Shown: in pieces, positions 11,619 to 54,601 of the stretch
Layout: the number at the start of each line of letters is the position of its first letter
Position numbering within the stretch: the stretch's first letter is position 1
Assembly: GCA_046048995.1 (NCBI GenBank)
Contig: JBJOEZ010000016.1
Coordinates: 7,243-71,242 of the forward strand
Direction: 5' to 3'
DNA length: 64,000 nucleotides
Origin: Verrucomicrobiota bacterium
GTDB taxonomy: Bacteria; Verrucomicrobiota; Verrucomicrobiia; Limisphaerales; JADJPG01
Program-made: the position numbers and the translations under genes
Notes under the pieces: generated by a model
What the model was told of the DNA's origin: nothing
What the model saw: only the letters and a program-made list of their open reading frames with translations
Database searches by the model: none

Positions 11619-11714
11619 ATGCCGATATATGACAGGTCAACGGGCGGGTGCCCCGGGGCTGGCAAAAAAAGGCTTCCCCCTCCCTCCCGTCCTGCCTGCA
11701 ATCAACGTCAGGAC

Positions 11715-14700
11715 ATGTCGCGTCGCGTTTTCTCCCTTGAACCGGGGCCAGGAAGGCCCGCCTCGCTGCTGCCCGTCCGTCGATTGTTCCATGGGCTGCT
11801 TTGGGCGTGCCTCCTTGGGGCAACGCCGCTGCGGGCGGCCGAGGGTTTCCCCGCCACCCCCGGGGTGCCCGGCCAGGCCACCCGCAAGCCCGATGTGACG
11901 GTCAACACGCTGCCGCCCCTGGGGCCCGGAACCCCTGCCACCTCGGCCCGCAGCAAACCCAGGCTCCGCCGCGAACGGGATCCGCGCAGCCTCCCCCCCG
12001 TGTCACCCTCCCTCCAGGGCGATGGCCCCTCCACGCGGCCCATCTACTCGGACGCCAGCCCAAGCTCCGGCGACGCCTTGTCCCCGGCCGGGTTCTTCCC
12101 TGCGGATTCCCCCCCTTCCCCGCCCCCCTCGGCCAGCTTCCAGGCGGTCATGGATGACGGAACCACCTACAACCCGGACACCAGCGGCGCCGTCGGCACG
12201 AACCACCTCATGACCGTCGTGGCCAGCGCCGTCCAGATTCTCAATCGCGCGGGCACCCAACTGTCCCTGGTCAGCCTCGCCAGTTTCTGGAGCAACCTCG
12301 GCACCAATGGCAACCCGGTGGTCTACGACCCGCGGGTGCTCTACGACCCTGCCGCCCAGCGATGGGTTCTGGCCGGCACCGCCAACCCGGGGTTGACCAA
12401 TCCAGGCCTGCTCGTCGCGGTCTCCCAGTCCAGCGATCCCACCGCCGGTTGGCACCGCTACTTTCTCCCCACCGACCTCCAGACGGATGTCTTCCCGGAC
12501 TCCCCCAACCTCGGGCTCAGCCGCGATTCCGTCATCATTTCCGCCAACATGTTCGACAGCACGAACTACTTCCACGCCAGTGCTGACGTCTTCGTCCTCA
12601 ACAAGGCCGCCCTCTACGCGGGCACCTCAACCCCGCCGCTGCTCCGCTTCTCCCGCAACGACATCGGCCCACCCGTCAACATTCCCGTGCCCGCCGTGGC
12701 CCTCGACGGGCCGGCCGCCACCAATTATCTCGTCGGCAATTGGAACGGCGACACCACCAACGGCGGCTACCTCGCCGTCTACACACTCTCCACCAACGCC
12801 AACAACGTCCTTGAACTGAACCTCAACTCGTTCAGCCGGGAACTGCCCGTGGGCACCCCGCGCTGGGACAGCTACGGACTCAACGACGACAATTTCGCCC
12901 CCCAGGCCGGCACCACCAACCGGATCTACCTCGGCGATTCCCGCATCGGCAACGTGGTCTACCGCGTCTCCCCCGACGCCAACACCCTGTTCCTCGCCCA
13001 GACCGTGTTCGTCCCGCCCGGCGGCCAACCCACCCGCGCCGCCGTGCAGTGGTGGGAAATCACCCTCAACGGCGTCGTCATCCAGCGCGGGCGCATCGAG
13101 GACACCGCCACCGGCCGGCACTTCGCCTACCCCAGCATCGCCGTGAACCGGCGCAACGACGTCCTCATCGGCTACTCCCGCTTCGGCCCCACCCAGTTCC
13201 CCGGCGCCAACTATTCCTTCCGCATCGATGCCGACCTCTTCAGTTCCCTGCGCGGTGACTCCGTCCTCAAGGCCGGGGAGGCCAAGTTCCACGCCCCGGA
13301 CGACTTCGGCCTGACCCGCTGGGGCGACTGGAGCGCGGCGGTGGTCGACCCCAACGACGACACCGACCTCTGGACCCTCCAGGAATACGCCTCCAGTCCC
13401 GTCAACGCCATCGACCGCTGGGGCACCTGGTGGGGCCGCGTCTCGCCGCCCAGCGACCTTTCCGTCCTCGCCTCCGACACTCCCGATCCGGCCGTGGCCG
13501 GCACCGACGTCACCTACGCCGCCACCGTCATCACCACCAACAACAAGATCCAGCGCGTCACCGGTGTCCGCCTGCAGGCCACCCTTCCCCCCACGGCCAC
13601 CCTGCTGTCCGTCACCCCCTCCCAGGGATCCTGCGGCACCACCAACGGCATCGTGACCTGCGACTTCGGCACCGTCGGGGACCAGGGACGCGCCACGGTC
13701 AGCCTGCTCGTCCGCTACCTGACCAACGGCTCGCCCTCGTTGTCCTTCAGCGCCTCCGCCAACGGCCCCGAGTTGACCCCACTCAACAACTCCGCCTCCG
13801 TCACCACCACCGTCCTTCCCGCCGCCGACCTCGCCGTGTCCGCCACCGTCGCCCCCGACCCCGTCACGGTCAGCAACCAGGTCGCCTACACCCTGGCCGT
13901 CACCAACCGCGGCCCCAATTCCGCCACCAGCCTGCAATTGACCAACACTCTCCCCCCCAACACCGCCTTTGTGGCCGCCTCGCCCAGCCAGGGCACCTGC
14001 TCCCACAACGCCGGCGTCGTCACCTGCAACCTCGGCACGCTTCCGCCCCTCGGCGTCGCCACCATCCAAATCACCGCCCGCCCCAACGCCCCCGGGAACC
14101 TCACCAACCGCACCGTGGCCGCCTCGGCCTCGGTGGACACCCTCCCCGCCAACAACACCGCCATCGTCAGCCTGCTCGCCAATGCCGCCCCCACCCTGGG
14201 CTTCATCTCCGACCGCACCATCAGTGAGGACACCTCCCTCGGCCCGGTCAATTTCTCCGTCGGCGACTTTGAGACGCCGGCCGGCAGCCTCGTCCTGTCG
14301 GGTATCTCCTCCAACCCGTCCATCGTGCCCCACGCGAACATCCTGTTCGGCGGCAGTGGGTCCAACCGCAACGTCACCGTGACGCCCCTCGCCAACGCCA
14401 ATGGCACGGTCGCCATCACGCGCATCGTCACCGACCCCCTCGGGGCCTCGGCCACCAACTCCTTCCTGCTCACCATCCTCCCCGTCAATGACCCGCCCAG
14501 CCTCAGCGCCGTCGCCCCAATCACCATGGCCGAGGACACCACCACCAACGTCAGCTTCTCCGTCAACGACAGCGAAACCCCCGCCGCCGTGCTGGCCGTC
14601 TCCGGGGCGTCCTCCAATCCCTCCCTCATCCCCAATGCCAGCCTGGTGTTTGGCGGCGTCGGCGCCTCCCGCACGCTCACCCTCACTCCCGCCCCCAACC

Positions 14701-17700
14701 AGCACGGCACCGCCACCATTTCCCTCACCGTCAGCGATGGAACCAACACTGCCAGCATCAACTTCCTCGTCACCGTCCTGGACGCCAACGACCCGCCCAG
14801 CGTCAGCGGCCTCACCAGCCGCAGCGTGCCGGAGGACGGCTCCACCGGCCCCATTCCCTTCACCGTGGGTGACATCGAGACTCCCGCCACATCCCTGAGC
14901 GTCACCGGCTTTTCGGCCAACCCGACCCTCGTGCCCGGCGCCAGCCTCGTGTTCGGCGGGAGCGGAGCCAACCGCACGCTCACCGTCACCCCGGCCACCA
15001 ACCAGTTCGGCACGGCCACGATTCTGGTCGTCGTCACCGACACCAACAGCGCCAGCGCCACCAATGCGTTCGACCTCTCCATCACGCCGGTCAATGACCC
15101 ACCCACCCTCACCCAACCGGGCGATCGCTCGGTCAACGAGGATGCCGGCCCGGTCTCCGTCGCTCTCCTCGGAATCACCCCCGGCGCCACCAATGAGATC
15201 CAAGCGGTCTTCCTCACCGCCTCCTCCAGCAATCCCAGCCTAATCCCCGCGCCCACCGTCTCCTACAGCGGGGGGCCCACCGGCCTGCTCACCCTCACCC
15301 CCGCCCCCAATGCCAGCGGCACCGCCGTCCTCACCGTGACCGCCATCGATGACGGTTCCTCCAACAACGTGACCACGCGAGCTTTCACCGTCACGGTCCT
15401 CCCGATCAACGATCCCCCGGTCGTTGCCGGCTTGCTCGACCGTCTCACGGACGAGGATGCCACCGCAGGTCCCTACGCCTTCACCGTGGGCGACCTGGAG
15501 TCGGCCTCCACCGCCCTCACCCTCACCGCCTCCTCCTCGGACGCCTCCCTCGTCCCGCCTGCCAACATCACCTTCAGCGGCACCGGCTCCAACCGCTTCC
15601 TCACCATCGTGCCCGCCGCCAACGCCACCGGCTCCTGCCGCATCTTCATCACGGTGAATGATGGGCAGGGCACCACCACCGATTCCTTCCTCCTCACCGT
15701 CCGCCCGGTCAACGACCCGCCCGCGCTGGCGCCGCTGCCGTCCCGGACGTTCGACGAGGACACCACCACCAATGTCACCGTGGCGCTCACCGACCCGGAG
15801 TCCCCGGCCTCCGCCCTTACCCTGGCCGCCTCCTCCTCCAATCCCTCCCTGCTCCCGCCCTCCGGCCTCCAGTTCGCCGGGGCCGGCTCCCCGCGAACCC
15901 TCACCCTCGTCCCCGCCGCCGACCAGTTCGGTTCCGCCGTTGTCACCGTCATTGCCACCGACCCCGAGGGCGGCACCAACGCCACCAGCTTTGCCGTCAC
16001 GGTCCTGCCCGTGAACGACCCCCCCACCCTCGGCCCCATCCCCAATGTGACGACCAACGAGGATGCCGGGCCGCAGGTGATCCTCCTGTCCGGGGTGGGC
16101 CCCGGCGCCGCCAACGAGAGCCAGGTCCTGACCTTCACCGTCGCCTCCGGTAATCCCGCCCTCATCCCCAACCCCACCGTCAGCTACACCAACGGCGCCA
16201 CCACCGCGCTCCTGCGCTTCACCCCCGCTCCCAACGCCCACGGGGAAACCACCCTCACGCTCACGCTTGATGATGGGGCCAGCAGCAATCGCACCGTGTC
16301 GCAGTCCCTCACCGTGCGCATTCTCCCGGTCAACGACCTGCCCATCCTCGCCGTGCCCGGCCCGCAGACCATGGCCGAGGACACCACCCGTGACCTGGCG
16401 TTGTCCGTCAGCGATGTGGAAAGCGGCGCTGCCGTCACCCTCTCCGTGCTCTCCTCCAATCCCGAGTTGTTCAGCGAGGCGGGCCTGCTGCTGTCGGGCA
16501 GCGGCACCAACCGCACCCTCAGCCTGCGCCCGCTCACCAACGCCTTCGGTTCGGCCGAGATCCTCGTCACCGCCACCGACGCCGATGGCGGCACCACCAA
16601 TGCCGCCTTTGAGGTGACGGTCAACCCCGTGAATGACTCCCCCTCCCTCTCGCCCATCAGCGCCCTGGTCATCAACGAGGACACCCTCAGCCCCGCCCTC
16701 GCCTTCACCATCCAGGACGCGGAGACGCCGGCCACCGCCCTGCAGGTCAGCGCCAGTTCCTCCAACCCCACGCTGATCCCCCAGGCCGGCCTCACGCTCT
16801 CCGGGGCCGGCGCCAACCGCTCGCTTCGCGTCCTTCCGGCCACCAACCAGTTCGGCACGGCCTCGATCACGGTTCAGGTCAGCGACGGCGCCCTCACCGC
16901 CACCAACATCTTCCTGGTCACGGTGCAACCCGTGGATGACCCGCCCACCCTCTCGAGCCTGTCCGACCTGGCCGTGGATGAGGACTCGCCGGCCGGCCCC
17001 TTGGCGGTGACCCTCGGGGATGTCGAGACGCCTGCCAGCGCGCTCCTGCTGACCGTCACTTCCTCCGACCAGGCCCTCCTGCCCGATGCGCGCATCACCG
17101 TCGCCGGCACCGGCGCAACCCGCCAACTCACGCTCCTGCCCGCCACCAACGCCCACGGTTCCTCCCTCATCACCGTCAGCGTCAGCGACGGACAAGCCAC
17201 CACCGCCAACTCCTTCCTCCTCACCGTCCGCCCGGTCAACGACCCGCCCGCGCTGGCAGTCCCCCCCTCGCTCCAACTCGATGAGGATGGGCCCGGTCTG
17301 GTCTTGCTGGACATCGGGGACGTGGAATCCGGCCCGGATAACCTGACCCTGCAGGTCATCTCCTCCAATCCCGTGCTCGTGCCGCCCAGCGGACTCGCCC
17401 TCGCCGGCACGGGGTCGGCACGGACACTGACGGTCACCCCTGCCGCCAACCAGTCCGGCACCGCGGAACTCCGCGTGTTCCTTGCGGATCCGGATGGGGC
17501 GACCAACGCCGGCAGCATCCTGCTCACCGTCAACGCCGTGAACGACGCCCCCACGTTGGATGCCCTCGCCAACCTGGGCCTGCAGGAGGATGCGGGACCC
17601 CAGTCGGTGACCCTCTCCGGCATCTCCCCGGGGGCGCCCAATGAGGCCCAGTCGCTCACCCTGACCGCCCAGTCCAGCAATCCGGCGCTCATCCCCACCC

Positions 17701-20700
17701 CGGTCATCGGATACACCAACGGCAGTTCCAGCGGGGTCCTCCGGTTCACGCCGCAGCCCAATGCGCATGGCGAGGCCACCCTCACCGTCACCATCCAGGA
17801 TGGAGCGGCCAGCAACAACCTCGTGACCCGCTCCTTCCTCGTGCAGGTCGCCCCCGTCAACGACCCCCCGGTGCTGGCCATGCCCTCCTCGCGCAGCCTG
17901 GACGAGGACACCACCGCGTCCCTGCCCGCCTATGTCAACGATGTGGAGGAACCCGCCCGCCTCCAGTTGGCCGTCCTGTCCGGCAACCCCACCCTCTTCC
18001 CTCCAGGCAGCCTTTCCTGGGAGGGCACCGGCACCAACCGCACCCTGATTCTCCACCCCGCCACCAACCGCTTCGGCTCCGCCCAGTTGACCTGCGTCCT
18101 GACCGATTCGGACGGCGTCAGCGTGACCAACCTGCTCCAAGTGGAAGTGCTCGCGGTCAATGATGTGCCGTTCATCGATCCCATCGCCGACCTGGCCCTG
18201 GATGAGGACACTGCAAGCCCTGCCATTCCCGTCACTGTGACCGATCCCGACAACCTCGGCCTGTTCCTGACCGTGACCGCGGCCTCCTCCAACCCCGTCC
18301 TCATTCCGCCCGGCGCCTTGGCGGTCACCGGCAAGCCGGCCAACCGCACGCTGCAGTTCTTGCCCGCCACCAACCAGTCCGGCACCGCAACCATCACCGT
18401 CACCGCCACCGACGGACTGGCCTCCAGCACCCGCACCTTCCAGGTCACGGTCCTGCCCGTCAATGATCCCCCGTTCATCAGCGACCTGCCGGACCGCGCC
18501 ATCAATGAGGATGAATCCACCGGGCCGGTGGCCTTCACCGTGCAGGATGCGGACCCGGATGCCGTGCTCAGCGTTTCCGCCACCTGCTCCAACCCCTTGC
18601 TCGTCCCCGCCGGGGGCGTGACCCTCGGAGGCAGCGGCCCCAACCGAACCATCCGCATCCTTCCGGCCACCAATGCCCACGGCGTGTGCATCATCACCCT
18701 CACGGTCAGTGACGGCCTGGCCACGGCCACCGACAGCTTCCAACTCACTGTCCTCCCCATCAACGATCCGCCGCAACTCACCGTGGGCCCGGCCATCACC
18801 CTCCCCGAGGACACCTCGACCAACCTGGTCATCACCGTGGTGGACATCGAGTCTCCCGCCTCGGCTCTCTCCCTCGCGGCAGGTTCCTCCAACCCGGCCC
18901 TGCTGCCGGCGGCCGGCCTCGTGCCCACAGGCAATGGAACCACCCGCAGCCTGCCCGTCGCCCCGGCCCCCGACGGCTTTGGCAACGCGGTCATCACCCT
19001 GCTGCTGACCGACCCGGACGGTGGCACCAACACCGCCACGGTCGATCTCTCCGTGGTTTCCCTCAACGATCCTCCCACCCTCGACCAACCCGCGGATGTC
19101 GCGGTCGATGAAGACGCCGGGCCGCAGACTCTCCTGCTCACCGGCATCACGCCTGGGCCGGCCAACGAGATTCAGTCCCTGGTGCTCTCGGCCATTTCCA
19201 GCGCACCCGCCATCATACCCAACCCCACCATCAGCTATACCAACGGCGGAGCGACCGCCGTGCTTCGGTTCACCCCGGTGCCGGATGCCTACGGGCAGGC
19301 TTCCATCACGGTCACCGTCGATGACGGCGGGCCCACCAACCGGTCCCTCACCCGCAGCCTGGTCATACAGGTGCGCCCCGTGAACGACCTGCCCACTCTC
19401 GGCCTGCCCGGTCCCCAGCGCATCCCCGAGGACACTTCCTTGAGCCTCAACCTGCTCGTCAATGACGTGGAGGGCGCCGCCCTGGTCGCCCTTGCCGCAG
19501 TGTCGGACAACCCCGCCCTGCTGGGGCCGTCCTCGCTGACGCTCGCCGGGTCCGGGACCAACCGGACCCTGACCATCACCCCGGCCACCAACGCCTTCGG
19601 GTCCGCCCGCATCACCGTGACCGCCACCGATGGCGGGGGCGGCACGACCCAGGGCTTTGTGGACCTCCAGGTCGACCCCGTCAATGACCGGCCCACCCTC
19701 ACCTCCTTCAACGCCCTGAGCCTCCTTGAAGACATCGCCAGCGGCGAGTTGCCTTTCGCCATCAATGATGTGGAAACCGACCCCGCCTTGCTGCAGGTCA
19801 CGATCTCCTCCTTGAACCCCTCGCTCTTCAGCCCCGTCGGCCTCGTGCTCGGGGGGGCGTCGGCCAACCGGTCCCTGCGCCTGTTCCCCACCACCAATCA
19901 AAGCGGCCTCGCCACCCTCATCGTCACGGTGTCGGATGGCCAACTCGCGGCCAGCAACTCCTTCGAGGTTACCGTCCAAGCCGTCAATGACCTCCCCACC
20001 CTGATCCTCCCCGGCGATTCGTCGATCGCCGAGGACACCGCCGCCGGGCCGCTGTCCGTGGCTGTGGGCGACATCGAGACGCCGCCGGGTTCCCTCTCCG
20101 TCCTCGCCTCCTCCTCCGACCCGCTTCTCCTCCCGCCTTCCGGGATCCTGCTCGGCGGCTCGGGAGCCAGCCGCACCCTGCTGCTCACCCCGGCCCCCCA
20201 CCGCTCGGGCACCGCCATGGTGTCGGTGGTGGTCACGGACGCCGATGCCGGGTCCGTCAGCAATGCCTTCCGCTTGACCGTCAGCCCGGTCAATGATGCC
20301 CCATCCCTGAACGCCATCTCCGACGTTGTCACCAACGAGGACGCCGGCCCCCTCTTCATCGGCCTGTCCGGCATCAGCGCCGGGCCGCTCGAGTCGCAAG
20401 CGCTCTCGGTCACGGTCACGGCGCAAAACCCCGCGCTGTTCTCCGCCACCACCGTCAATTACAGCAGCCCCGCCAGCATCGGCTCGATCGTCCTCACCCC
20501 GGCCACCAACGCCAATGGATCCTCCCTCGTCACCGTCACTGTCCGCGACGACGGCGCCGGGTCGAACACGTTCTCGCGGTCCTTCACGGTCTCCCTGCTC
20601 CCGGTCAATGATCCCCCCACCCTTTCACCCCTCGCCAACCTGACCCTCCCGGAGGATGCCCCCGCCCAGGTCATCACTCTGGCCGGCATCAGCGCCGGGC

Positions 20701-23700
20701 CCGCCGACGAACTCCAACCGCTTGCCGTCACCGCCCTCTCCGATAATCCCGGGCTCATCCCCCACCCCGCGGTCAACTTCACCAGCCCCGGCCCCGGGGG
20801 AACCCTATCCTTTACCCCGGTTGCCAATGCCTTCGGCACGGCTCGAATCACCGTCACCGTCTCCGAGCCAGGCGGCGGATTGTCTGTCGCCCAGTCGTTC
20901 ACCGTCCAGGTGACAAACGTCAATGACGCCCCCGGCATCGTCGGCCCCGGCCCCCAATCGCTGCCGCGCAGTGTCGCCACCAATCTCCTTTTCTCCGTTG
21001 GCGACATCGACAACGACGTCACGGCCCTGACCGTGGCCGCCGCCTCCTCCAACCCCACCCTGTTCCCGGCTGGGAGCCTCGTGGTGTCCGGCACCGGCAG
21101 CCAGCGCACCCTCGCCGCGGCCCCCGCCACCAACCGCTCCGGCACCGCCACCATCGTCCTCACCGTCACCGACCCTGCCGGCGGCCAGGCTTCCGCCAGC
21201 TTCCTCTTCACGGTCTCCCCCACCGGCCTGCCCCCCGCCCTTTCGCCGCTGTCCAACCGCGCCACCGCCGAGGACACCCCGCTCACCGTCGCGTTCACCG
21301 TCAGCGACTTTGAAACTCCGGCCGCCAACCTGGCCGTCACGGCCACCTCCTCGAACAGCAGCCTGCTGCCCCCCTCCAGCCTGACCCTCGGCGGAAGCGG
21401 GGCCAACCGGACGCTCACGCTGCTTCCCCGGACCAACCAGGCCGGCACCACCCTGATCACGCTCCGGGTCACGGATGCCGAAGGCCAGTTTGCCACGGGC
21501 AGTTTCCTGGTCACGGTCACGAACGTGAACGATCCCCCCATGCTGTCCGGCCTGCCCGACCTGTCCCTCGACGAGGATGCCGCCACCGGTCCCCTGCCCT
21601 TCACCGTGCAGGACGTCGAGACGCCGGCAACCAATCTGACGGTCACCGCGCAATCCTCCAACCCAACACTGCTCCCGCCCGCCAGGCTGATCCTGGGTGG
21701 CACCGGGGCCAACCGGACCCTCACCGTCACGCCCGCGCCGGACCAGTCCGGCACCGCCACGGTCACGCTCGTCATCGATGATGGCGAGGGCGGCACCGGC
21801 ACACGCTCCTTTGCAGTGAGCGTGGCCCCGGTCAATGACCCACCCACCCTCGATACCCCCGCCAACATTTCCATCCCCGAGGACGCCGGTTCCCAGTCCG
21901 TCTCCCTGACCGGCCTCAGCGCGGGGGGCGGTGAGGCCCAGCCCCTCTCCATCACGGCCACCTCCAGCAACCTCGCCCTGCTGCCTCATCCGCAGGTTTC
22001 CTACACCTCGCCCCAGGCCTCGGGTTCCCTGCTGCTCAACCCGGCTCCCAATGCCTCCGGCACCAGCCTGGTCACGGTAACCGTCCAGGACACCGGCACC
22101 TCCAACCAAGTCCTCGTCCGCTCCTTCCTCGTCACCGTGGTCCCGGCCAACGATCCCCCGTCCCTCTCGTCCATCGCCGACCAACGCACGGCCGAGGATG
22201 TCGCCGGGACCGTCAGCTTCACCGTGCAGGATGCCGAGACGCCCGCCGCACAGTTGGCCGTCACCGCCTACGCCAGCGACCCCCTCCTGCTCCCCGCCGG
22301 CAACATCCTCATCCATGGCAGTGGCACCAATCGCACCGCCATCCTGCAGCCCGCCCCGGACCGCTTCGGCACCACCACGGTCAACATCGCTGTCAGCGAC
22401 GGCGTTGCCTCCAACGTCACCTCCTTCGCGTTCGGCGTCTTCGCCGTCAATGACCCGCCCTCCCTCAACCCGCTCACCAACGCCCTCTACAATGCCAGCC
22501 CCGGCATCATCACCCTCCGGCTCACCGGCATCGGCGCGGGCAACGCCTTCGAGTCCGATTCCCCCTTCACCCTGACCACCACCAATTCGTTCCCTGCCGC
22601 CTTCTGGCAAAGCGCGCCGGTTGCCACCTACAGCGGCGGCACCACGGGGACGCTGACCTTCCGCCCCGCCAGCAACCAGACCAACAGCGGCGTCGTCGCC
22701 GTTCTGCTCAATGACGGCCGTTCCTCGAACAACATCACGGTGCGCACCTTTCTCCTCTCCGTCCGCTCCAGTGCCAACGCCCAGCCTTGGATCAGCGGCC
22801 TGTCCGCCCAGTCCCTCAATGAGGATGCCACCCTCGGGCCGCTCAGCTTTACGGTCGGCGACGCGCTGACCCCGGCCGGCGAACTCGTCGTCACCGTGAC
22901 CTCGTCCAACCAGGCGGTCATCCCCAACACGGGCCTCGTGCTCGGCGGCTCCGGATCCACCCGCACCCTCACCATCACCCCGACCCCCAACGCCTCCGGT
23001 TCCTCCCTCCTTTCCCTCGTGGTCCAGGACACCGCCTTCGCCTTCACCAACCTCAACGTCCTGGTCACGGTCAACCCCGTCAATGACCCGCCGACCATCT
23101 CCCCGGTCGGCAACCTCGCCGCCACCGAGGATGCCGCCCCGGCCGTGGTGCCCTTTGGCGTGGCCGACCTCGAGACCAGCCCGGCCGCCTTGGTGGTCAC
23201 CGCGACCTCCGGCAACCCCACCCTGGTGCCCTCCGGCAACCTGGCGCTCGGCGGCAACGGCACCAATCGCGCCCTCGTGATCACGCCCGCCCCCAACCAG
23301 TCCGGCAGCAGCCTGATCACCCTCACCGTCAACGACGGCACCACCACCGCCAACACCAGCTTTACTTTCTCCGTCGCCCCGGCCAACGACCCGCCTTCCC
23401 TCGTTGCCCCCGGCCCGGTCACCCTCGCCGAGGACGCCTCCAGCGGCCCGCTCCCCGTCACCCTCGCCGACCCCGAAACCGCCGCCGGAGGCCTCTCCCT
23501 GTCAGCCGTGTCCTCCCATCCCACCCTCCTGCCCAACACCAACCTGGTCCTGGGCGGCAGTGGCGGCAGCCGCACCCTGACCCTCACGCCCCTGCCCAAC
23601 CAGTCGGGCACCGCCACCATCACGCTCACGGTCGGGGATGGCACCAATTCCACCACGGCCTCCTTCCCCGTCACCGTCAACCCCGTGAACGACGCCCCCA

Positions 23701-24512
23701 CCCTCAACCCCATCGGACCCCTCTCGCTGCCGCAGGATGCCCCGCCCACCACCGTCACCCTGACCGGGATCAGCGCCGGCGAAGGTGAAAGCCAACTCCT
23801 GGTGCTCGCGGCCAGTTCCAGCCTCCCCTCCCTCATCCCGCACCCCGCCGTCAGTTACACAAGCCCCGCCTCCTCGGGAACCCTCACCCTCTCGCCCGTC
23901 GCCGGAGCCCATGGAACGGCCCAAATCACCGTCATCCTCAGCGATGGCCAGCCGGAAAACTCCCTCGTCACCCGCAGCTTCACGGTCACCATCAACAGCG
24001 CCCCCGGCATCTCCCCCATCGCCGATCAACTCCTCTCCGGCAGCACGCCCTCAACCCTCGTGACCTTTACCGTCAGCGACCCGGAATCCCCGGCTGCCGA
24101 TCTCTCCGTCTCCACCACCTCTTCCAACCCCGTCCTGATCGGTTCCTCCCACCTCGTCCTCGGAGGCGCCGGCGCCGCCCGCACCCTCCAGGTTTCCCAT
24201 GCCCCCGGCCAGTCGGGCTTCGCCGTCATCACCGTCACGGCGCGGGATCCCCAGGGCAACACCGCCAACACCAGCTTCCTCGTCACCGTTCTCCCCTCCG
24301 CCACCCCGCCCGTGCTCACCATCGCCCGGGCCGGCAATGGCATCCTTCTCCGGTGGCCCATCGAGGCCGGGGACTACGTCCTGGAAGCCCAGTCCGCCCT
24401 GCTCGGGCCTTGGGCCCCGGTGGCAATCGCCCCGGTGCCCGACAACGGGCAGAATACCGTGACGCTCCCCCTCACGGGCAGCCACCAGTTCTTCCGCCTG
24501 CGCCTGCGCTGA
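11715..24512 (+). CDS. Giant secreted repeat protein (4265 aa): signal peptide, Pro/Ser-rich linker, unknown globular N-domain, DUF11-type repeats, about 33 cadherin-like ~100-aa modules, FYR-type tail
   Basis: Track ORF 11619..24512. I prefer the ATG at 11715 (MSRRVFSLEPG...LLWACLLGATPLRAAEG), which gives a plausible signal peptide. High GC3 throughout. DUF11-type units (DLSVLASDTPDP..., DLAVSATVAPDP...VTNRGPNSAT...NN). Modules end in PVNDPP, DANDPP, PINDPP or AVNDAP. Tail ends ...SHQFFRLRLR-stop. Confidence 0.85.
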   Translation: MSRRVFSLEPGPGRPASLLPVRRLFHGLLWACLLGATPLRAAEGFPATPGVPGQATRKPDVTVNTLPPLGPGTPATSARSKPRLRRERDPRSLPPVSPSLQGDGPSTRPIYSDASPSSGDALSPAGFFPADSPPSPPPSASFQAVMDDGTTYNPDTSGAVGTNHLMTVVASAVQILNRAGTQLSLVSLASFWSNLGTNGNPVVYDPRVLYDPAAQRWVLAGTANPGLTNPGLLVAVSQSSDPTAGWHRYFLPTDLQTDVFPDSPNLGLSRDSVIISANMFDSTNYFHASADVFVLNKAALYAGTSTPPLLRFSRNDIGPPVNIPVPAVALDGPAATNYLVGNWNGDTTNGGYLAVYTLSTNANNVLELNLNSFSRELPVGTPRWDSYGLNDDNFAPQAGTTNRIYLGDSRIGNVVYRVSPDANTLFLAQTVFVPPGGQPTRAAVQWWEITLNGVVIQRGRIEDTATGRHFAYPSIAVNRRNDVLIGYSRFGPTQFPGANYSFRIDADLFSSLRGDSVLKAGEAKFHAPDDFGLTRWGDWSAAVVDPNDDTDLWTLQEYASSPVNAIDRWGTWWGRVSPPSDLSVLASDTPDPAVAGTDVTYAATVITTNNKIQRVTGVRLQATLPPTATLLSVTPSQGSCGTTNGIVTCDFGTVGDQGRATVSLLVRYLTNGSPSLSFSASANGPELTPLNNSASVTTTVLPAADLAVSATVAPDPVTVSNQVAYTLAVTNRGPNSATSLQLTNTLPPNTAFVAASPSQGTCSHNAGVVTCNLGTLPPLGVATIQITARPNAPGNLTNRTVAASASVDTLPANNTAIVSLLANAAPTLGFISDRTISEDTSLGPVNFSVGDFETPAGSLVLSGISSNPSIVPHANILFGGSGSNRNVTVTPLANANGTVAITRIVTDPLGASATNSFLLTILPVNDPPSLSAVAPITMAEDTTTNVSFSVNDSETPAAVLAVSGASSNPSLIPNASLVFGGVGASRTLTLTPAPNQHGTATISLTVSDGTNTASINFLVTVLDANDPPSVSGLTSRSVPEDGSTGPIPFTVGDIETPATSLSVTGFSANPTLVPGASLVFGGSGANRTLTVTPATNQFGTATILVVVTDTNSASATNAFDLSITPVNDPPTLTQPGDRSVNEDAGPVSVALLGITPGATNEIQAVFLTASSSNPSLIPAPTVSYSGGPTGLLTLTPAPNASGTAVLTVTAIDDGSSNNVTTRAFTVTVLPINDPPVVAGLLDRLTDEDATAGPYAFTVGDLESASTALTLTASSSDASLVPPANITFSGTGSNRFLTIVPAANATGSCRIFITVNDGQGTTTDSFLLTVRPVNDPPALAPLPSRTFDEDTTTNVTVALTDPESPASALTLAASSSNPSLLPPSGLQFAGAGSPRTLTLVPAADQFGSAVVTVIATDPEGGTNATSFAVTVLPVNDPPTLGPIPNVTTNEDAGPQVILLSGVGPGAANESQVLTFTVASGNPALIPNPTVSYTNGATTALLRFTPAPNAHGETTLTLTLDDGASSNRTVSQSLTVRILPVNDLPILAVPGPQTMAEDTTRDLALSVSDVESGAAVTLSVLSSNPELFSEAGLLLSGSGTNRTLSLRPLTNAFGSAEILVTATDADGGTTNAAFEVTVNPVNDSPSLSPISALVINEDTLSPALAFTIQDAETPATALQVSASSSNPTLIPQAGLTLSGAGANRSLRVLPATNQFGTASITVQVSDGALTATNIFLVTVQPVDDPPTLSSLSDLAVDEDSPAGPLAVTLGDVETPASALLLTVTSSDQALLPDARITVAGTGATRQLTLLPATNAHGSSLITVSVSDGQATTANSFLLTVRPVNDPPALAVPPSLQLDEDGPGLVLLDIGDVESGPDNLTLQVISSNPVLVPPSGLALAGTGSARTLTVTPAANQSGTAELRVFLADPDGATNAGSILLTVNAVNDAPTLDALANLGLQEDAGPQSVTLSGISPGAPNEAQSLTLTAQSSNPALIPTPVIGYTNGSSSGVLRFTPQPNAHGEATLTVTIQDGAASNNLVTRSFLVQVAPVNDPPVLAMPSSRSLDEDTTASLPAYVNDVEEPARLQLAVLSGNPTLFPPGSLSWEGTGTNRTLILHPATNRFGSAQLTCVLTDSDGVSVTNLLQVEVLAVNDVPFIDPIADLALDEDTASPAIPVTVTDPDNLGLFLTVTAASSNPVLIPPGALAVTGKPANRTLQFLPATNQSGTATITVTATDGLASSTRTFQVTVLPVNDPPFISDLPDRAINEDESTGPVAFTVQDADPDAVLSVSATCSNPLLVPAGGVTLGGSGPNRTIRILPATNAHGVCIITLTVSDGLATATDSFQLTVLPINDPPQLTVGPAITLPEDTSTNLVITVVDIESPASALSLAAGSSNPALLPAAGLVPTGNGTTRSLPVAPAPDGFGNAVITLLLTDPDGGTNTATVDLSVVSLNDPPTLDQPADVAVDEDAGPQTLLLTGITPGPANEIQSLVLSAISSAPAIIPNPTISYTNGGATAVLRFTPVPDAYGQASITVTVDDGGPTNRSLTRSLVIQVRPVNDLPTLGLPGPQRIPEDTSLSLNLLVNDVEGAALVALAAVSDNPALLGPSSLTLAGSGTNRTLTITPATNAFGSARITVTATDGGGGTTQGFVDLQVDPVNDRPTLTSFNALSLLEDIASGELPFAINDVETDPALLQVTISSLNPSLFSPVGLVLGGASANRSLRLFPTTNQSGLATLIVTVSDGQLAASNSFEVTVQAVNDLPTLILPGDSSIAEDTAAGPLSVAVGDIETPPGSLSVLASSSDPLLLPPSGILLGGSGASRTLLLTPAPHRSGTAMVSVVVTDADAGSVSNAFRLTVSPVNDAPSLNAISDVVTNEDAGPLFIGLSGISAGPLESQALSVTVTAQNPALFSATTVNYSSPASIGSIVLTPATNANGSSLVTVTVRDDGAGSNTFSRSFTVSLLPVNDPPTLSPLANLTLPEDAPAQVITLAGISAGPADELQPLAVTALSDNPGLIPHPAVNFTSPGPGGTLSFTPVANAFGTARITVTVSEPGGGLSVAQSFTVQVTNVNDAPGIVGPGPQSLPRSVATNLLFSVGDIDNDVTALTVAAASSNPTLFPAGSLVVSGTGSQRTLAAAPATNRSGTATIVLTVTDPAGGQASASFLFTVSPTGLPPALSPLSNRATAEDTPLTVAFTVSDFETPAANLAVTATSSNSSLLPPSSLTLGGSGANRTLTLLPRTNQAGTTLITLRVTDAEGQFATGSFLVTVTNVNDPPMLSGLPDLSLDEDAATGPLPFTVQDVETPATNLTVTAQSSNPTLLPPARLILGGTGANRTLTVTPAPDQSGTATVTLVIDDGEGGTGTRSFAVSVAPVNDPPTLDTPANISIPEDAGSQSVSLTGLSAGGGEAQPLSITATSSNLALLPHPQVSYTSPQASGSLLLNPAPNASGTSLVTVTVQDTGTSNQVLVRSFLVTVVPANDPPSLSSIADQRTAEDVAGTVSFTVQDAETPAAQLAVTAYASDPLLLPAGNILIHGSGTNRTAILQPAPDRFGTTTVNIAVSDGVASNVTSFAFGVFAVNDPPSLNPLTNALYNASPGIITLRLTGIGAGNAFESDSPFTLTTTNSFPAAFWQSAPVATYSGGTTGTLTFRPASNQTNSGVVAVLLNDGRSSNNITVRTFLLSVRSSANAQPWISGLSAQSLNEDATLGPLSFTVGDALTPAGELVVTVTSSNQAVIPNTGLVLGGSGSTRTLTITPTPNASGSSLLSLVVQDTAFAFTNLNVLVTVNPVNDPPTISPVGNLAATEDAAPAVVPFGVADLETSPAALVVTATSGNPTLVPSGNLALGGNGTNRALVITPAPNQSGSSLITLTVNDGTTTANTSFTFSVAPANDPPSLVAPGPVTLAEDASSGPLPVTLADPETAAGGLSLSAVSSHPTLLPNTNLVLGGSGGSRTLTLTPLPNQSGTATITLTVGDGTNSTTASFPVTVNPVNDAPTLNPIGPLSLPQDAPPTTVTLTGISAGEGESQLLVLAASSSLPSLIPHPAVSYTSPASSGTLTLSPVAGAHGTAQITVILSDGQPENSLVTRSFTVTINSAPGISPIADQLLSGSTPSTLVTFTVSDPESPAADLSVSTTSSNPVLIGSSHLVLGGAGAARTLQVSHAPGQSGFAVITVTARDPQGNTANTSFLVTVLPSATPPVLTIARAGNGILLRWPIEAGDYVLEAQSALLGPWAPVAIAPVPDNGQNTVTLPLTGSHQFFRLRLR
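14181..24310 (+). repeat. In-frame array of about 33 ~300-nt cadherin-like modules inside giant gene 2, with a 5-module (~1.52 kb) super-repeat (approximate bounds)
   Basis: Same A and B module flavours as in gene 1. B-type modules (..NEDAGPQ..L.G[IV].PG..NE.Q.L.....S..PA.IP.P..[SG]YTNG.....LRFTP.P[ND]A.G[EQ]...) begin near 16024, 17549 and 19073, a spacing of 1525 and 1524 nt. Each is followed by a related A-type module. Confidence 0.75.
24305..24509 (+). other. C-terminal 'FYR' tail module of giant protein 2
   Basis: PPVLTIARAGNGILLRWPIEAGDYVLEAQSALLGPWAPVAIAPVPDNGQNTVTLPLTGSHQFFRLRLR-stop. Confidence 0.5.
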
Positions 24513-36328: not shown

Positions 36329-37366
36329 TCAGAAGGAGTAGCCCAGGCCGGCGGATATCCAGAGCATGCGACTGAGGTCCAGCTCCACGCGTGCCCCCTC
36401 ATAGGTGTGGGAATAGTCGCCCAGGGTCATGAACTGGGCGCCCACCTGCGCGCTCCACTGCTCGTCAAAGGCCCAGGTGAAGGTCGCCCCCACATAGCCG
36501 CCAACCAGGAAGTCGCTGTCCGAGCCGGAGCCGCCGGACCCTCCCCCGCCGGGCAGTTGCTGGGTCCACGTGTAATCACCCTGCAGGCCGCCAATGGCCA
36601 GGCCGCCACTCACGCCCAGCAACCCATGCCGGCCCACCTCCCATTCCAAGCCGGGCCCCAGGCGCAGGGCGAACAGGTCCGCCTCAAACTCGCGCGACCC
36701 GCCCAGCGTCGCCCCGGCCACGGGAGCCGCACTCCGGGTCGGCGTGTCGAACAGCAGGAAACCAGGCCCGTTGAAGGTGCCGGCATAGGGAGCCGCCGGC
36801 GGAGTCGTCCCCGGCTGAAACGCATAGGTGTCGGTAATCTCCTCCACGCCTCCCCGCAGGTCGCCGCGATCCTGGATGGACAGCGGCGCCCATCCAAGCC
36901 CCGCCTCCACGCCCCACCGCAGGCGGGCCCCCAGCCTGCCCAATTGGCGCTGGTAAACCAACTCCAGCCCATACTGCGGGTCCGAGTCGACCTCGCCGCT
37001 GGACCCGTCCGCCGTCGCCGACAGGCTGTGAAACGCAATGCTGTTGCCAGTCACCTGCGCGGGCTCGCTGTAGCCCCAGAACCACGTGGTTCCGCCGGTG
37101 TTGCCGGTGCGATCCACCCGCACAAAGCCGTCGTCATACTCGTGGTTCGCCCCGGACGTCGCGGCCCCGATCGCCGTGCGCGGCCCGGTCGCCGCGCTCT
37201 GGAACTTCGCGCTGATGTTCAGGCCAAACCGGGCGTTCACGCTCAGTCGGTGGAGGTTGGTGCTGGCATGGGCCAGCGGCATGTCCCCGTCCGCCCCAGC
37301 CGCGCCCAGCGCAGGCAGGAGAATGGAGGCAAGGGCCAGGGGGCGTCGGGCGGCAGGGGACCTCAT
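36329..37366 (-). CDS. Outer-membrane beta-barrel protein (hypothetical)
   Basis: Signal peptide MRSPAARRPLALASILLPALGAAGA. Alternating-hydrophobic strands separated by G/S/T/D-rich loops. Terminal ..ISAGLGYSF-stop (a C-terminal aromatic residue is typical of OMPs). Starts 23 nt after the stop of the upstream cadherin-like gene. Confidence 0.6.
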   Translation of the reverse strand: MRSPAARRPLALASILLPALGAAGADGDMPLAHASTNLHRLSVNARFGLNISAKFQSAATGPRTAIGAATSGANHEYDDGFVRVDRTGNTGGTTWFWGYSEPAQVTGNSIAFHSLSATADGSSGEVDSDPQYGLELVYQRQLGRLGARLRWGVEAGLGWAPLSIQDRGDLRGGVEEITDTYAFQPGTTPPAAPYAGTFNGPGFLLFDTPTRSAAPVAGATLGGSREFEADLFALRLGPGLEWEVGRHGLLGVSGGLAIGGLQGDYTWTQQLPGGGGSGGSGSDSDFLVGGYVGATFTWAFDEQWSAQVGAQFMTLGDYSHTYEGARVELDLSRMLWISAGLGYSF

Positions 37367-37389
37367 AGGCGGAAGGGCGCGGACTGGGT

Positions 37390-39486
37390 TCAGGGGTTTT
37401 CAACGACCCGATAGAAGCGCTTCACCTGCTCGCTCGGCCGGGAATCGGTCTTGGGCGGGCCGTCGTCATACCATTGCGTCCGGTTGGACGAGGCGGTGAC
37501 GGCGGGCACGGCAGTCTTCCATGACTTCATGTCGTCGCTGTAAACAATGGTGTAGACCCGCCCCGGCACCGATGCAAACTCAATCAGGTAGCGCGGTTCC
37601 CCCGGGATCCGGGTGTCGAGCAGGGTCCGCTCAATCACCACCCCGATGCCGTCCATCGGCGGCTTGGGCGCCGCCGCCGGCGTCGGCACCACCCGGTAGG
37701 ACGTCGCAAACGGCCGCCGATCCGGGATGTAATACTCGACGCGGATGCTCACCCTCGCCCCCGCCTCCAGGGAGCGGTTATACTGGATGAAGGGCACGCC
37801 GTCGTTCGTTCCCGAGGCGTTCCACACCACCACCCCGGCCGGGACGTTCAGGACATCCAGCCGGAAGGCCGCCAGCGCCATCGTGCCCTCGTTGGTAATC
37901 GACACGCGCTGTTCAAAGAGGCCGGTCTGGAAGTTCAGCGTGAGCGGGTCGGTCCCAATCCCGATCGGAGCCGGCATCACAACGACGCTCACCCGGCCCG
38001 TCGCCCGCGCCCCCGAGGCGTCCTGCACGATGTACTGGAAGATGTCGGTCCCGATGAAGTCGGGCCGCGGGGTGTAGACGACCCCCTTGTCCACCAACCG
38101 AACCGTGCCGCCCGCGCTGGACGCCGGGCTGACCCCGACCAGCGTCACCGCGTCGCCCTCGGGGTCCACCACCGCCCCGAGGAATCGACCCTCCTCCAGC
38201 AGAAGCGGCGTGTTTATCGGCGTGGCAAACTCCAGGTCGCCGGCCACCGGCGGATCGTTCACCGCCCGCACCAACACGGTCACCGTGGCCGTGGCTGTGC
38301 CGCCGCGCCCGTCGCTGACGGTGTAGGTGAAGGTGTCCGGACCCGAGTAGTTGGGCGGTGGCGTGTAAACCACGTTGGTCCCGTCGAAACGGATGGCGCC
38401 TCCACGCTCGCTCGCCGGACCCGCGGAAATGATCTGCAGCGGATCGCCGTCCGGGTCCGAATCGTTGGCCAGCAGCAGCCCCCCCGGAATCAGCAGCGTC
38501 CCATCCTCCTCGCCCGTCAACAGGTCATCGACCGCCACGGGCGCCCGGTTGGGCCGGGGTTGCACGTCCACCGTGACCGTCCCGATGGCCTGCCCGCATG
38601 GCCCCGCGTAAAGGCCGTAGGAGAAGCTGTCCGGCCCGACATAGCCCGCCGGCGGCAGGTAAATGATGCGCTGCCCGTCAAACGTCACCAGGCCGCCCCG
38701 GGCGGAATTCGTCCGCACATCCACCAGGGACACCACGTCCCCGTCCGCGTCGCTGTCGTTGGCCAGCAACTGGGCCGGGGTCAGCACCAACGGTGTGGGT
38801 TGCGCCGTCGAAAACGCGTCGGGCCCCGCCGTCGGCATGCGATCCGGCACTGTGGCCACCTCCACCAAAACGGGCGCCGCACCGGGGGGAGGCACCACCA
38901 GGATGCCCGCCACCTGGCCGGACTGGGGCACAAACCCGGGGCCCACCGACCGCGCCTCGGCGATCAATTCCTGCGTGGTCTCGCTCGGCGGCGAAAAGCG
39001 CGGGTCGTCGGGCGGGACGGTGACGCCCAGCAACGCCCAAATGGCGCCCTGCATCTCGTCCGCGGTGCCCCGCGGATGGTTGATCAGGTAGCCAACCAAA
39101 TCCCACGAGCCCTCCGGCAACCCGGCCGGCAGGGCTTCCAGCGAATTATAGGCCCGCACCGGGCACTGCCGCCCGGCCGCCGGCGTCCCCGGGTAGGCCA
39201 CCGCCCATCCCCGGTAGGTCCGGTTCGACAGGGTGAACCCCGCCGGGACCCCGCTCAGGTCCACCTGCAGGAACCCGCCGGGCCGGCCATCCAGCACTTC
39301 CAGGCAGATCGCCGCCGCCGCCTGCTGTTCGGGCGACGGTAACAGGACGCGGGCGCAGACCAACCGGGCAAGCGCCGGTTGGGCCAAGCCGGCCAGCAGC
39401 ACAAGGAACAGGCCAACCCGAAGAGGCCACCGCAACCGGCGGGCGGCGGGGGCACAGGCTGAGGCACACAGGGGGCGGGCACTCAT
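37390..39486 (-). CDS. Secreted cadherin-like/bacterial-Ig repeat protein with FYR-type tail
   Basis: 698 aa with a hydrophobic N-terminal signal/anchor. Three ~95-aa units carry LLANDSD[AP]DGD...GG.[IV].F[DV]G...[IV]Y.P...[YF].G.D.F.Y.V.D..G....... and the second ends in AVNDPP. A CARDB/DUF11-like unit follows, then the tail ..VYTIVYSDDMKSWKTAVPAV...VKRFYRVVENP-stop. Confidence 0.75.
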   Translation of the reverse strand: MSARPLCASACAPAARRLRWPLRVGLFLVLLAGLAQPALARLVCARVLLPSPEQQAAAAICLEVLDGRPGGFLQVDLSGVPAGFTLSNRTYRGWAVAYPGTPAAGRQCPVRAYNSLEALPAGLPEGSWDLVGYLINHPRGTADEMQGAIWALLGVTVPPDDPRFSPPSETTQELIAEARSVGPGFVPQSGQVAGILVVPPPGAAPVLVEVATVPDRMPTAGPDAFSTAQPTPLVLTPAQLLANDSDADGDVVSLVDVRTNSARGGLVTFDGQRIIYLPPAGYVGPDSFSYGLYAGPCGQAIGTVTVDVQPRPNRAPVAVDDLLTGEEDGTLLIPGGLLLANDSDPDGDPLQIISAGPASERGGAIRFDGTNVVYTPPPNYSGPDTFTYTVSDGRGGTATATVTVLVRAVNDPPVAGDLEFATPINTPLLLEEGRFLGAVVDPEGDAVTLVGVSPASSAGGTVRLVDKGVVYTPRPDFIGTDIFQYIVQDASGARATGRVSVVVMPAPIGIGTDPLTLNFQTGLFEQRVSITNEGTMALAAFRLDVLNVPAGVVVWNASGTNDGVPFIQYNRSLEAGARVSIRVEYYIPDRRPFATSYRVVPTPAAAPKPPMDGIGVVIERTLLDTRIPGEPRYLIEFASVPGRVYTIVYSDDMKSWKTAVPAVTASSNRTQWYDDGPPKTDSRPSEQVKRFYRVVENP
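37393..37563 (-). other. C-terminal 'FYR' tail module
   Basis: GRVYTIVYSDDMKSWKTAVPAVTASSNRTQWYDDGPPKTDSRPSEQVKRFYRVVENP-stop. Confidence 0.45.
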
Positions 39487-50194: not shown

Positions 50195-50304
50195 GGAGCC
50201 CGCAGTGTGGCGAGGGCCCCGGAGGCTGCAAGGGGGAAAGCGCAGCCGCTGCCGCCATCGGGGGCTTGTCACCCGTCACGGCCCCGCCTTAACTCGGCCC
50301 CCAT

Positions 50305-50722: not shown

Positions 50723-51184
50723 TCAACGCCCCGCCGGGGGCGCCACCACCGGCCCCGGTCCCGGAGCCGTGGCCGGGACGGGAACCAGCGCACGGTTCAA
50801 ATACTGCGGCAGCGAACTGCGGTAGCGATCCAGCACGTTGCTCTGGAAATCCCGCCGCGTCGCGGCATAGGCCTGCAGCCGGGCCAGGAACTGGGTGATT
50901 TCAGGCTGCCGGTTCCGCTGGAACTCCGCCTCCGTCCGCAACACCACCGGCCGCTGCTCGTTCACCTGCTGCTCCACCAGGCGCATCTGCTTGAAGAAAA
51001 ACAGATTCACGCCCAGCGCCAGGCACACCAGGGCCACCAGCGCGCCGTTCAGCAACCGGCGCATGTCCTGGTTCTCCTGCACCAACGCGGCCAGGACGCC
51101 CTGCGCATCCGGGCGGGCTTCGGCGAGCGGCGCCGGCACCGGGCCCGCGGTCGACGGTGGGATCTGGGGTTCCGGGATATCCAT
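50723..51184 (-). CDS. Hypothetical single-pass membrane protein
   Basis: MDIPEPQ..., one TM (LLNGALVALVCLALGVNLFFF), a helical Q/R/E-rich segment and a Pro-rich tail. High GC3. The ATG at 51184 lies 10 nt after the stop of the upstream small gene. Confidence 0.45.
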   Translation of the reverse strand: MDIPEPQIPPSTAGPVPAPLAEARPDAQGVLAALVQENQDMRRLLNGALVALVCLALGVNLFFFKQMRLVEQQVNEQRPVVLRTEAEFQRNRQPEITQFLARLQAYAATRRDFQSNVLDRYRSSLPQYLNRALVPVPATAPGPGPVVAPPAGR

Positions 51185-51194
51185 GGCCACGTCC

Positions 51195-51485
51195 TCAGCG
51201 CGGAGCCCGCATCCCGGCCCCGGCGGCATTGGTGCCCGGGCCCGGCTTCAGGTTGAACTGCAGCAGCAAGGGGTCAAGGTCGGGGCTGCGCCGGCTGTAG
51301 TCGATCGTCTCCGCCACCAGCGACTGCAGGGCGGCCAGCGTCGTCTGCAGGCGGGCGTAACGCGCCTGCAGCGCCTGCGCCTCGCGCACCGTGTAAAAGT
51401 AGCGGACCGCCCACAGGCTCGCGGACAGGCAAAGCACAAACAACAACAGGACCAAGGTCACCCCCACCGGGTTGTTGCGAAACAT
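51195..51485 (-). CDS. Hypothetical small single-pass membrane protein (96 aa)
   Basis: MFRNNPVGVTLVLLLFVLCLSASLWAVRYFYTVREAQALQARYARLQTTLAALQSL... I translated the codons by hand and they show strong GC3. The longer track ORF (to 52397) is an extension inside the upstream gene. Confidence 0.45.
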   Translation of the reverse strand: MFRNNPVGVTLVLLLFVLCLSASLWAVRYFYTVREAQALQARYARLQTTLAALQSLVAETIDYSRRSPDLDPLLLQFNLKPGPGTNAAGAGMRAPR

Positions 51486-54313: not shown

Positions 54314-54601
54314 GGCACGACGCACAGCATCCGTCCCCAGGACGCCCACTCGCTCAGACCATGGGAAAACCGGGAACCAGCTTAACCAACGTGGCTCACC
54401 GGGAACCCGCCCGCAGCCCAGGCCAAACTTCGGCCGGACCAGAAGGCCCCTCTGCCCACAAAGGGACCCGCGCACAAGGCACCGCACAGGAAAACGGAAC
54501 GGCCGCATGGAAGCGGAAACCCCGGCGAAAGTCAACCGGAACCCTCCACGGGAAACCCTTGTCCACGGCCACTTTAGCTGTCCACCCCCGCCCCGCCCCC
54601 C

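Follow-up and report, generated by a model that had tools for sequence, protein, structure and literature searches.

A C-terminal FN3-like module recurs on large secreted proteins of Verrucomicrobiota and, in one subtype, is paired with a predicted outer-membrane barrel

Four proteins encoded in a 64,000-nucleotide stretch of Verrucomicrobiota DNA end in similar tails, here referred to as FYR modules. The stretch (the window; positions 7,243 to 71,242 of contig JBJOEZ010000016.1) stems from a metagenome-assembled genome (MAG) and has a G+C content of 69%. The tail-bearing proteins are called carriers 1 to 4, and the tail of carrier 2 is the focal copy of this analysis (Table 1). A first-pass annotation, made from the letters of the window alone, considered the shared tail as a candidate sorting or anchoring tag. 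The comparisons presented here point to a folded module related to FN3 domains, found preferentially at the C-terminal end of exported multidomain proteins and accompanied, in one subtype, by a conserved outer-membrane partner gene.

The carriers differ in size and architecture. Carrier 1 contains Ig, GEVED and DUF11 domains and many Big_9/cadherin-like repeats. Carrier 2 comprises a signal peptide, an N-terminal domain without assignment, DUF11 and about 35 Big_9/cadherin-like repeats. Carrier 3 is built from a signal peptide, three Big_9/cadherin-like (tandem-95) repeats, a conserved penultimate β domain and the FYR tail, and carrier 4 would possess a signal peptide if translation starts at MQRSLF..., which is the probable start. 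Carriers 1, 2 and 4 have exact or near-exact matches among NCBI proteins (MFM1769084.1, MFM1769085.1 and MFM1769112.1, with locus tags RJA22_1613, 1614 and 1641), all of which are annotated as 'hypothetical protein'. Signal-peptide-like N-termini had been noticed on three carriers; they are present on all four once the full-length NCBI version of carrier 1 is included. Reading of the sequences also bears out that no carrier ends in a C-terminal transmembrane (TM) helix or in a PEP, LPXTG or GlyGly motif.

Some further features of the two giant proteins are worth recording. Their genes adjoin on the same strand with 125 nt between them. Both proteins hold dozens of Big_9/cadherin-like repeats of ~100 aa with a recurring junction, VNDPPT/S-L (4500-11000 and 14000-24200, + strand). 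In carrier 2, a large region in the N-terminal part (about residues 170-620; 12100-13500, + strand) has no Pfam match at E ≤ 0.001; it precedes DUF11 and the cadherin-like repeats.

The last ~70 residues of all four carriers show the landmarks by which the tail was originally recognized, and in the same order: an alternating strand, Y-x-[VL]-[EQ], a tryptophan and [FL][YF]R. The four open reading frames (ORFs) and their end positions had likewise been given exactly. Two details have to be corrected. The chains terminate in RFYRVRED, QFFRLRLR, RFYRVVENP and FLYRSVQSP, respectively, which places the stop codon 4-5 residues past the arginine of FYR in all four tails and not, as proposed, the F-[YFL]-(Y)-R motif 2-5 residues before the stop. 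Furthermore, strand 1 of tail 3 is RYLIEF, whereas YTIVY, which had been assigned to it, is the Y-x-V-x-Y strand.

Taken by themselves, the four tails show marginal similarity, and BLASTP matches between pairs of them are weak. In a leave-one-out test, a hidden Markov model (HMM) was run over all six-frame ORFs of the window (681 in total); tails 1, 4 and 3, when left out, were each the best non-training match (E-values of 1.3e-3, 0.011 and 0.19), and tail 2 was not recovered. A second HMM was built from 213 foreign copies; neither proteins of the window nor P0039, the closest tail-3 relative, contributed to it. This external model detected tail 1 at 1e-17, tail 3 at 2.6e-14, tail 4 at 1.4e-12 and tail 2 at 3.2e-10, and the next-best of the 681 ORFs at 0.016. 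The foreign copies were also sorted into four groups according to the most similar tail, and the group profiles were compared by hhalign. All six pairs of these external-only subfamily profiles aligned, over 71-80 columns and with probabilities of 96.5-99.4%; a profile-profile comparison of this kind had been named as a check in the first-pass annotation. The external HMM scores and the hhalign probabilities show that the four tails are homologous and are copies of one module. No fifth copy, terminal or internal, was found elsewhere in the window. Outside it, tail 2 reaches up to 48% identity with tandem copies in other proteins.

The family extends far beyond this genome. With the four-tail profile as query, HMMER retrieved 5,176 of 1.84 billion representative proteins at E ≤ 1e-3, 173 of them at E ≤ 1e-10; ~10% of the top matches are cross-hits that fall on canonical FN3 or discoidin domains. 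A word-indexed homologue search, started from the four tails and then from 82 diverse copies, returned mostly short, unnamed fragments, largely of the tail-3 type, which served as alignment rows. Named carriers of genuine FYR arrays are all Verrucomicrobiota and are named after their other domains; matches in Planctomycetota (Roseimaritima, Rubripirellula) are canonical FN3 cross-hits. The 90%-identity cluster of one 718-aa carrier, P0013, also holds fragments of 52-54 aa (P0224-P0230, P0233), three of which (P0224-P0226) bear the source name 'nitric-oxide synthase', which looks like a spurious automatic name.

No described family covers the module, as had been supposed. Searches with Pfam-A and NCBIfam models gave no relevant match on the four tails even at E ≤ 10, neither to fn3 (PF00041) nor to the T9SS (type IX secretion system) model Por_Secre_tail, to PEP-CTERM, to LPXTG or to other sorting-domain models. 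A single weak match, DUF5959 on tail 3 (E-value 0.026), lies below threshold and was dismissed. Proteins made almost wholly of the FYR module belong to no Pfam family either, and a literature search for the motif and for any described Verrucomicrobiota C-terminal domain found nothing.

The module is about 65-75 aa long and is predicted to fold as a small β-sandwich. An AlphaFold2 model of tail 2, computed with an 82-sequence alignment, has a pLDDT (predicted local distance difference test score) of 92.9 and six strands (residues 10-14, 17-23, 29-34, 49-51, 54-60 and 67-72), the last of which is FFRLRL. When the profile of the 82 diverse copies was compared with the Protein Data Bank (PDB), it matched FN3con at 5.4e-6 and 3mpc, an Fn3-like protein of C. 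thermocellum, at 2.9e-5 over profile positions 10-79 of 84. In the latter alignment, RFYRl falls on KYYYVV, which is the F strand of 3mpc, and the 3mpc chain continues for 28 residues. A profile made only of FYR copies and one of canonical FN3 copies align in hhalign with a probability of 97.7% (E-value 2e-12); this alignment stops at column 83 of 102, leaving the last ~19 columns, which include the G strand, unmatched.

Structural comparison gives a similar picture. The top Foldseek matches of tail 2 in the PDB are FN3 domains (cytokine receptors, FNIII of integrin β-4, 3mpc and Tencon), with probabilities of 0.9-1.0 and query-normalised TM-scores of 0.52-0.67, although the E-values of this small domain are only 0.06-0.3. 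No C-terminal domain (CTD) of the T9SS occurs among the top 50 matches. The comparison with FN3 domains and T9SS CTDs, which had been suggested as a check, thus turns out in favour of FN3. Significant profile similarity and a predicted β-sandwich of FN3 topology make the FYR module a divergent member of the FN3 superfamily. It falls outside the Pfam fn3 family, the gathering threshold of PF00041 not being reached and strand G of the strands A-G being absent. In the model and the alignments, the module appears to end at the F strand. The tail is a divergent FN3 domain and not a short tag.

The position of the module along proteins was surveyed in the 150 best database proteins, which hold 452 copies. 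In most of these proteins (124 of 150), no more than 10 aa separate a copy from the C-terminus, and the distance is mostly 0-3 aa. Counted by copy, 121 are followed by the protein end, 214 by another copy within 25 aa and 93 by other sequence; in some 30 of these 93, the profile has picked up a canonical FN3 or discoidin domain, and the rest are genuine internal copies. In two independent sets of loci, the module is C-terminal in 80 of 80 carrier ORFs (genomes) and in 32 of 34 (metagenomes). The C-terminal restriction initially proposed therefore holds per protein but not per copy: internal copies outnumber terminal ones because copies stand in tandem arrays of 2-8. At the extreme, P0026 and P0007 consist of little more than a signal peptide and two to five copies. 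Other carriers combine the module with Big_9, cadherin-like, fn3, DUF11, Calx-beta, Ig, MBG, cohesin, RCC1 or subtilisin domains.

The terminal copies end in a very regular manner. Among the 121 proteins that stop directly after a copy, the stop lies 4-5 residues past the arginine of [FY][YF]R in 85, and the last residue is a proline in 61. The typical ending is FYR-x(3-4)-P-stop; the chain therefore stops where the proline-rich linker between copies would begin.

One subtype has a conserved neighbour. A predicted outer-membrane β-barrel protein of 345 aa is encoded 23 nt downstream of carrier 3 (37366 to 37390), the distance noted from the start. The tail-3 subtype alone, whose hallmark is the insert QWYDDG[PA]P, was searched for in GTDB representative genomes, one for each species. 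This yielded 80 loci, of which most carry a Verrucomicrobiota label (Limisphaerales, Pedosphaera, subdivision 3). In 78 of these 80 species-level loci, the 345-aa protein has a homologue encoded directly downstream on the same strand, and the intergenic gap is 3-35 bp in most loci where it is measurable. In the two loci without a barrel match, L062 and L069, the contig breaks off no more than a few hundred bases from the carrier gene. The suggestion that this gene is a partner of the tail is well borne out in this subtype: carrier 3 and the barrel form a real, conserved two-gene cassette, neither part of which has a family name. Nine loci (L001, L041, L043, L049, L061, L066, L070, L073 and L080) are labelled Bifidobacterium, Bifidobacteriaceae, Klebsiella or Chitinophaga; these oddly labelled MAGs with a Verrucomicrobiota-type cassette are probably mislabelled or chimeric bins.

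Carriers of the tail-3 subtype are conserved only in the last ~185-210 aa, i.e. in the penultimate β domain and the FYR tail, and their total length varies from roughly 200 to more than 2,100 aa if a probable 90-aa fragment is left out. Between the last two strands of the module, this subtype contains a nearly invariant insert, TQWYDDGPPKT (37393-37470, - strand), which other subtypes lack. This insert may specify the partner barrel.

The 345-aa protein itself has no match in Pfam (E ≤ 0.01, PorP_SprF included), in NCBIfam (E ≤ 0.1) or among PDB sequences. An AlphaFold2 model built with database homologues (pLDDT 84.8) is almost all-β with very long strands. Foldseek relates it to FadL, OmpT, Pla, Ail and OmpA (E-values of 1e-6 to 1e-4), with probabilities of 0.9-1.0 for most of the best-ranked matches and low TM-scores of 0.2-0.33. 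A signal peptide, the predicted all-β fold and a C-terminal aromatic residue, which is also seen in the homologues ending in ...SYSF, are the features expected of an outer-membrane β-barrel; membership of the PorP/SprF family is not indicated. The best 120 of 242 matches (E ≤ 1e-3) all look like close orthologues, and the family thus looks like one tight orthologous group.

A role of this barrel as general partner of FYR tails was ruled out, since its 120 best matches all look like close orthologues and the neighbours of the other carriers examined are unrelated. The neighbour downstream of carrier 2 in the window is a convergent esterase gene. The genes downstream of four carriers from other organisms (P0008, P0007, P0066 and P0040) are unrelated. 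Among the subtypes, tail 3 alone comes with a dedicated outer-membrane partner gene. For carrier 4, two small single-pass membrane ORFs encoded downstream had also been put forward as partners. This idea was abandoned: of the tail-4-type loci with a downstream flank, only the closest relative, L085 (68% identity), retains them. They are probably not partners of the tail. Further downstream of them, in an order also kept in L085, lies a 755-aa ORF (48005-50272, - strand) that by eye resembles a fusion of a PAP2-type phosphatase and an ArnT/PMT-like membrane glycosyltransferase. Rfam and tRNA scans of the window were empty.

Table 1. Coordinates of the carriers, their FYR modules and neighbouring genes in the window
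Feature	Position	Strand	Details
Carrier 1	76..11493, cut by window start (part counted from 1)	+	full protein 4676 aa, MFM1769084.1, P0220
Tail 1, FYR module of carrier 1	11266..11490	+	ends ...PRRFYRVRED
Carrier 2	ORF 11619..24512; annotated start MSRRVF gives 11715..24512	+	4265 aa, MFM1769085.1
Tail 2 (focal), FYR module of carrier 2	24291..24509	+	ORF end; LPSATPPVLTIARAGNGILLRWPIEAGDYVLEAQSALLGPWAPVAIAPVPDNGQNTVTLPLTGSHQFFRLRLR
Predicted outer-membrane β-barrel	36329..37366	-	345 aa; signal peptide, ends ...GLGYSF
Carrier 3	37390..39486	-	698 aa
Tail 3, FYR module of carrier 3	37393..37623	-	TQWYDDGPPKT insert, then KRFYRVVENP
Two small single-pass membrane ORFs, downstream of carrier 4	51195-51485, 50723-51229 (span 50723..51485)	-	
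Carrier 4	ORF 51569..54535; probable start MQRSLF... gives 51569..54313	-	Ig/I-set domains
Tail 4, FYR module of carrier 4	51572..51790	-	ends ...GGFLYRSVQSP

What could such a module do? We consider it fairly probable that it is a C-terminal stalk or attachment module which holds or presents the variable N-terminal part of the protein non-covalently, with the tail-3 form specialised to its barrel. What has been shown, and what this proposal builds on, is a single family with FN3 homology, a confident sandwich model in which the F strand comes last, the tandem arrays and the regular position of the stop. In the proposed mechanism, the G strand would have been lost, and the chain would end, or the next copy would start, a few residues past the F strand R-F-Y-R-[VL]. 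Verrucomicrobiota carry the module, singly or as 2-8 copies in tandem, at the C-terminus of adhesin-like multidomain proteins that are exported by Sec. There, it could act as a cell-proximal stalk or as an attachment at the cell envelope. In the tail-3 subtype, the module and the preceding conserved domain would dock onto the barrel encoded immediately downstream. It would not be a cleaved linear sorting signal.

Several points weigh against this proposal. We infer the open edge of the F strand from the strand list of the model and the alignments, and the envelope-anchoring role from position, tandem repetition and the synteny of the tail-3 subtype. No conserved neighbour was seen next to the other carriers examined. 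Other domains follow a minority of the genuine copies, roughly 50 of about 430, so that the C-terminal position is a strong preference and not a rule. Moreover, the 5,176 database matches set an upper bound for the family, because there are cross-hits among the top ones.

Other explanations have to be weighed against the stalk or attachment role. The module might be a plain FN3/Ig spacer whose C-terminal bias reflects the way genes grow, e.g. by duplication at the 3′ end, and not a role at the envelope. The FN3 homology is clear, the arrays resemble those of other spacer domains, some copies are internal and the carriers are full of other Ig-like repeats. However, about 90% of the proteins with genuine copies end in one, many of the exceptions to the 124 of 150 being cross-hits, and the position of the stop is fixed within about one residue. 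This end is all that unrelated carrier architectures have in common, the Big_9 and Ig repeats of the same giant proteins obey no such positional rule, and the tail-3 family conserves the tail region while the rest varies. We therefore regard a mere spacer as rather unlikely, although it deserves more weight than the remaining alternatives. Chance or compositional resemblance in β-rich sequence encoded by high-GC DNA can claim the weak pairwise similarity of the four tails and the failure of tail 2 in the leave-one-out test, but it is scarcely credible. It is refuted by the external-only HMM, which scores the tails at 1e-17 to 3e-10 against 0.016 for the next-best in the same six-frame background, and by the profile-profile comparison; thousands of database homologues also contradict it.

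A true secretion or sorting CTD of the T9SS kind comes closer to the idea from which this analysis started. Here, an outer-membrane machinery encoded elsewhere in the genome would recognise the terminal copy, translocate the protein and perhaps cleave the module off. Such a function would suit Sec substrates of very different architecture with a folded β-sandwich at the extreme C-terminus, the very regular ending and the coupling of the tail-3 subtype to an outer-membrane barrel, which is reminiscent of the link between type B CTDs and PorP-like proteins (PMC9143113). Yet arrays of 2-8 copies, internal copies and proteins made only of a signal peptide and repeats are unlike any known sorting signal. 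The models for T9SS CTDs, PEP-CTERM and sortase-type signals are all unmatched at E ≤ 10, the T9SS CTD is missing from the top 50 structural matches, and no conserved machinery was found next to carriers of other subtypes. Known tags are single and terminal, whereas the FYR module can be arrayed, internal or make up a whole protein, and the sorting-tag reading therefore fits poorly; we hold it to be improbable. What stands of the sorting or anchoring tag in the first-pass annotation is an undescribed, homologous and positionally constrained module; what is not supported is the tag itself, given a predicted folded domain that occurs in arrays and internally and lacks conserved machinery beside carriers other than those of the tail-3 subtype. 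On present evidence, the FYR module is not a new sorting system. An equally doubtful idea is that it is the common attachment handle of an undescribed surface display system of Verrucomicrobiota, or of the Planctomycetes-Verrucomicrobia-Chlamydiae (PVC) group, in which the open R-F-Y-R edge docks onto outer-membrane proteins by strand addition. The tail-3 cassette, found in at least 78 species, could then be the genetically visible case, and the other carriers could use a shared receptor encoded elsewhere.

Verrucomicrobiota encode many giant secreted proteins, and the FYR module may bear on how these reach the cell surface or stay there. What is new is an FN3-like family that appears to lack the G strand, has no model and follows a C-terminal capping rule, together with an unnamed carrier-barrel cassette. 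Neither Pfam nor NCBIfam models this large domain family of thousands of clusters, and current annotation misses it; the external copies supply a usable HMM seed, and the positional rule is simple and strong. The cassette offers a concrete entry point into surface anchoring in Verrucomicrobiota. Should the module be only a structural spacer, its value would be limited to better annotation.

The closest known relatives are FN3 domains (PF00041, 3mpc), with which the FYR module shares the predicted β-sandwich fold and strand order. Common landmarks are L-x-L-x-W in strand B, Y-x-V-x-Y in strand C and Y-Y-R-V in strand F. In contrast to FN3, the module measures ~70 instead of ~90 aa and would end at the F strand without a G strand. 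It also has a conserved tryptophan after strand C, the R-F-Y-R motif and a strong preference for the extreme C-terminus.

The type A CTD of the T9SS (Por_Secre_tail, TIGR04183) resembles the FYR module in several respects. It is an Ig/FN3-like sandwich of ~70-80 aa at the extreme C-terminus and occurs on Sec-dependent surface or secreted proteins of varied architecture. However, the FYR module matches neither Por_Secre_tail nor TIGR04183 nor TIGR04131 at E ≤ 10, finds no T9SS CTD among its top 50 structures and, unlike the single-copy CTD, forms tandem arrays and has internal copies. The T9SS core components PorK/L/M/N, Sov and PorU/V were not seen in the parts of the window examined. In two reports, the T9SS is described as limited to Bacteroidota or the Fibrobacterota-Chlorobiota-Bacteroidota (FCB) group (PMC11611037, PMC12398890), and Verrucomicrobiota lie outside the range given there.

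T9SS proteins with a type B CTD pair with adjacent PorP/SprF-like outer-membrane anchors (PMC9143113). The tail-3 subtype, and only this one, shows the same arrangement of a variable surface protein, a conserved C-terminal region and an adjacent dedicated barrel. By analogy, this pairing suggests anchorage to the barrel. Unlike the type B partner, however, the tail-3 barrel has no PorP_SprF match and belongs to a different phylum, no other T9SS context was seen, and the other FYR subtypes have no such neighbour.

PEP-CTERM/exosortase, LPXTG/sortase and GlyGly-CTERM/rhombosortase substrates also carry their signal at the C-terminus of signal-peptide proteins and number many paralogous carriers per genome. 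Their signals consist of a motif, a TM helix and a basic tail, measure ~25-35 aa and are never repeated. The FYR module has neither TM helix nor motif and is predicted to be a folded domain; signature motif, hydrophobic helix and basic tail are all absent from the four ends in the window, which sets the carriers apart from these classes.

Lastly, SLH domains, choline- or cell-wall-binding repeats, LysM and GW modules stand in tandem at protein termini, with avidity as the usual rationale. Their fold and sequence are unrelated to those of the FYR module and they occur mostly in monoderm bacteria. Nevertheless, like the FYR module as predicted here, they are folded terminal modules that are repeated in tandem on otherwise unrelated secreted proteins.

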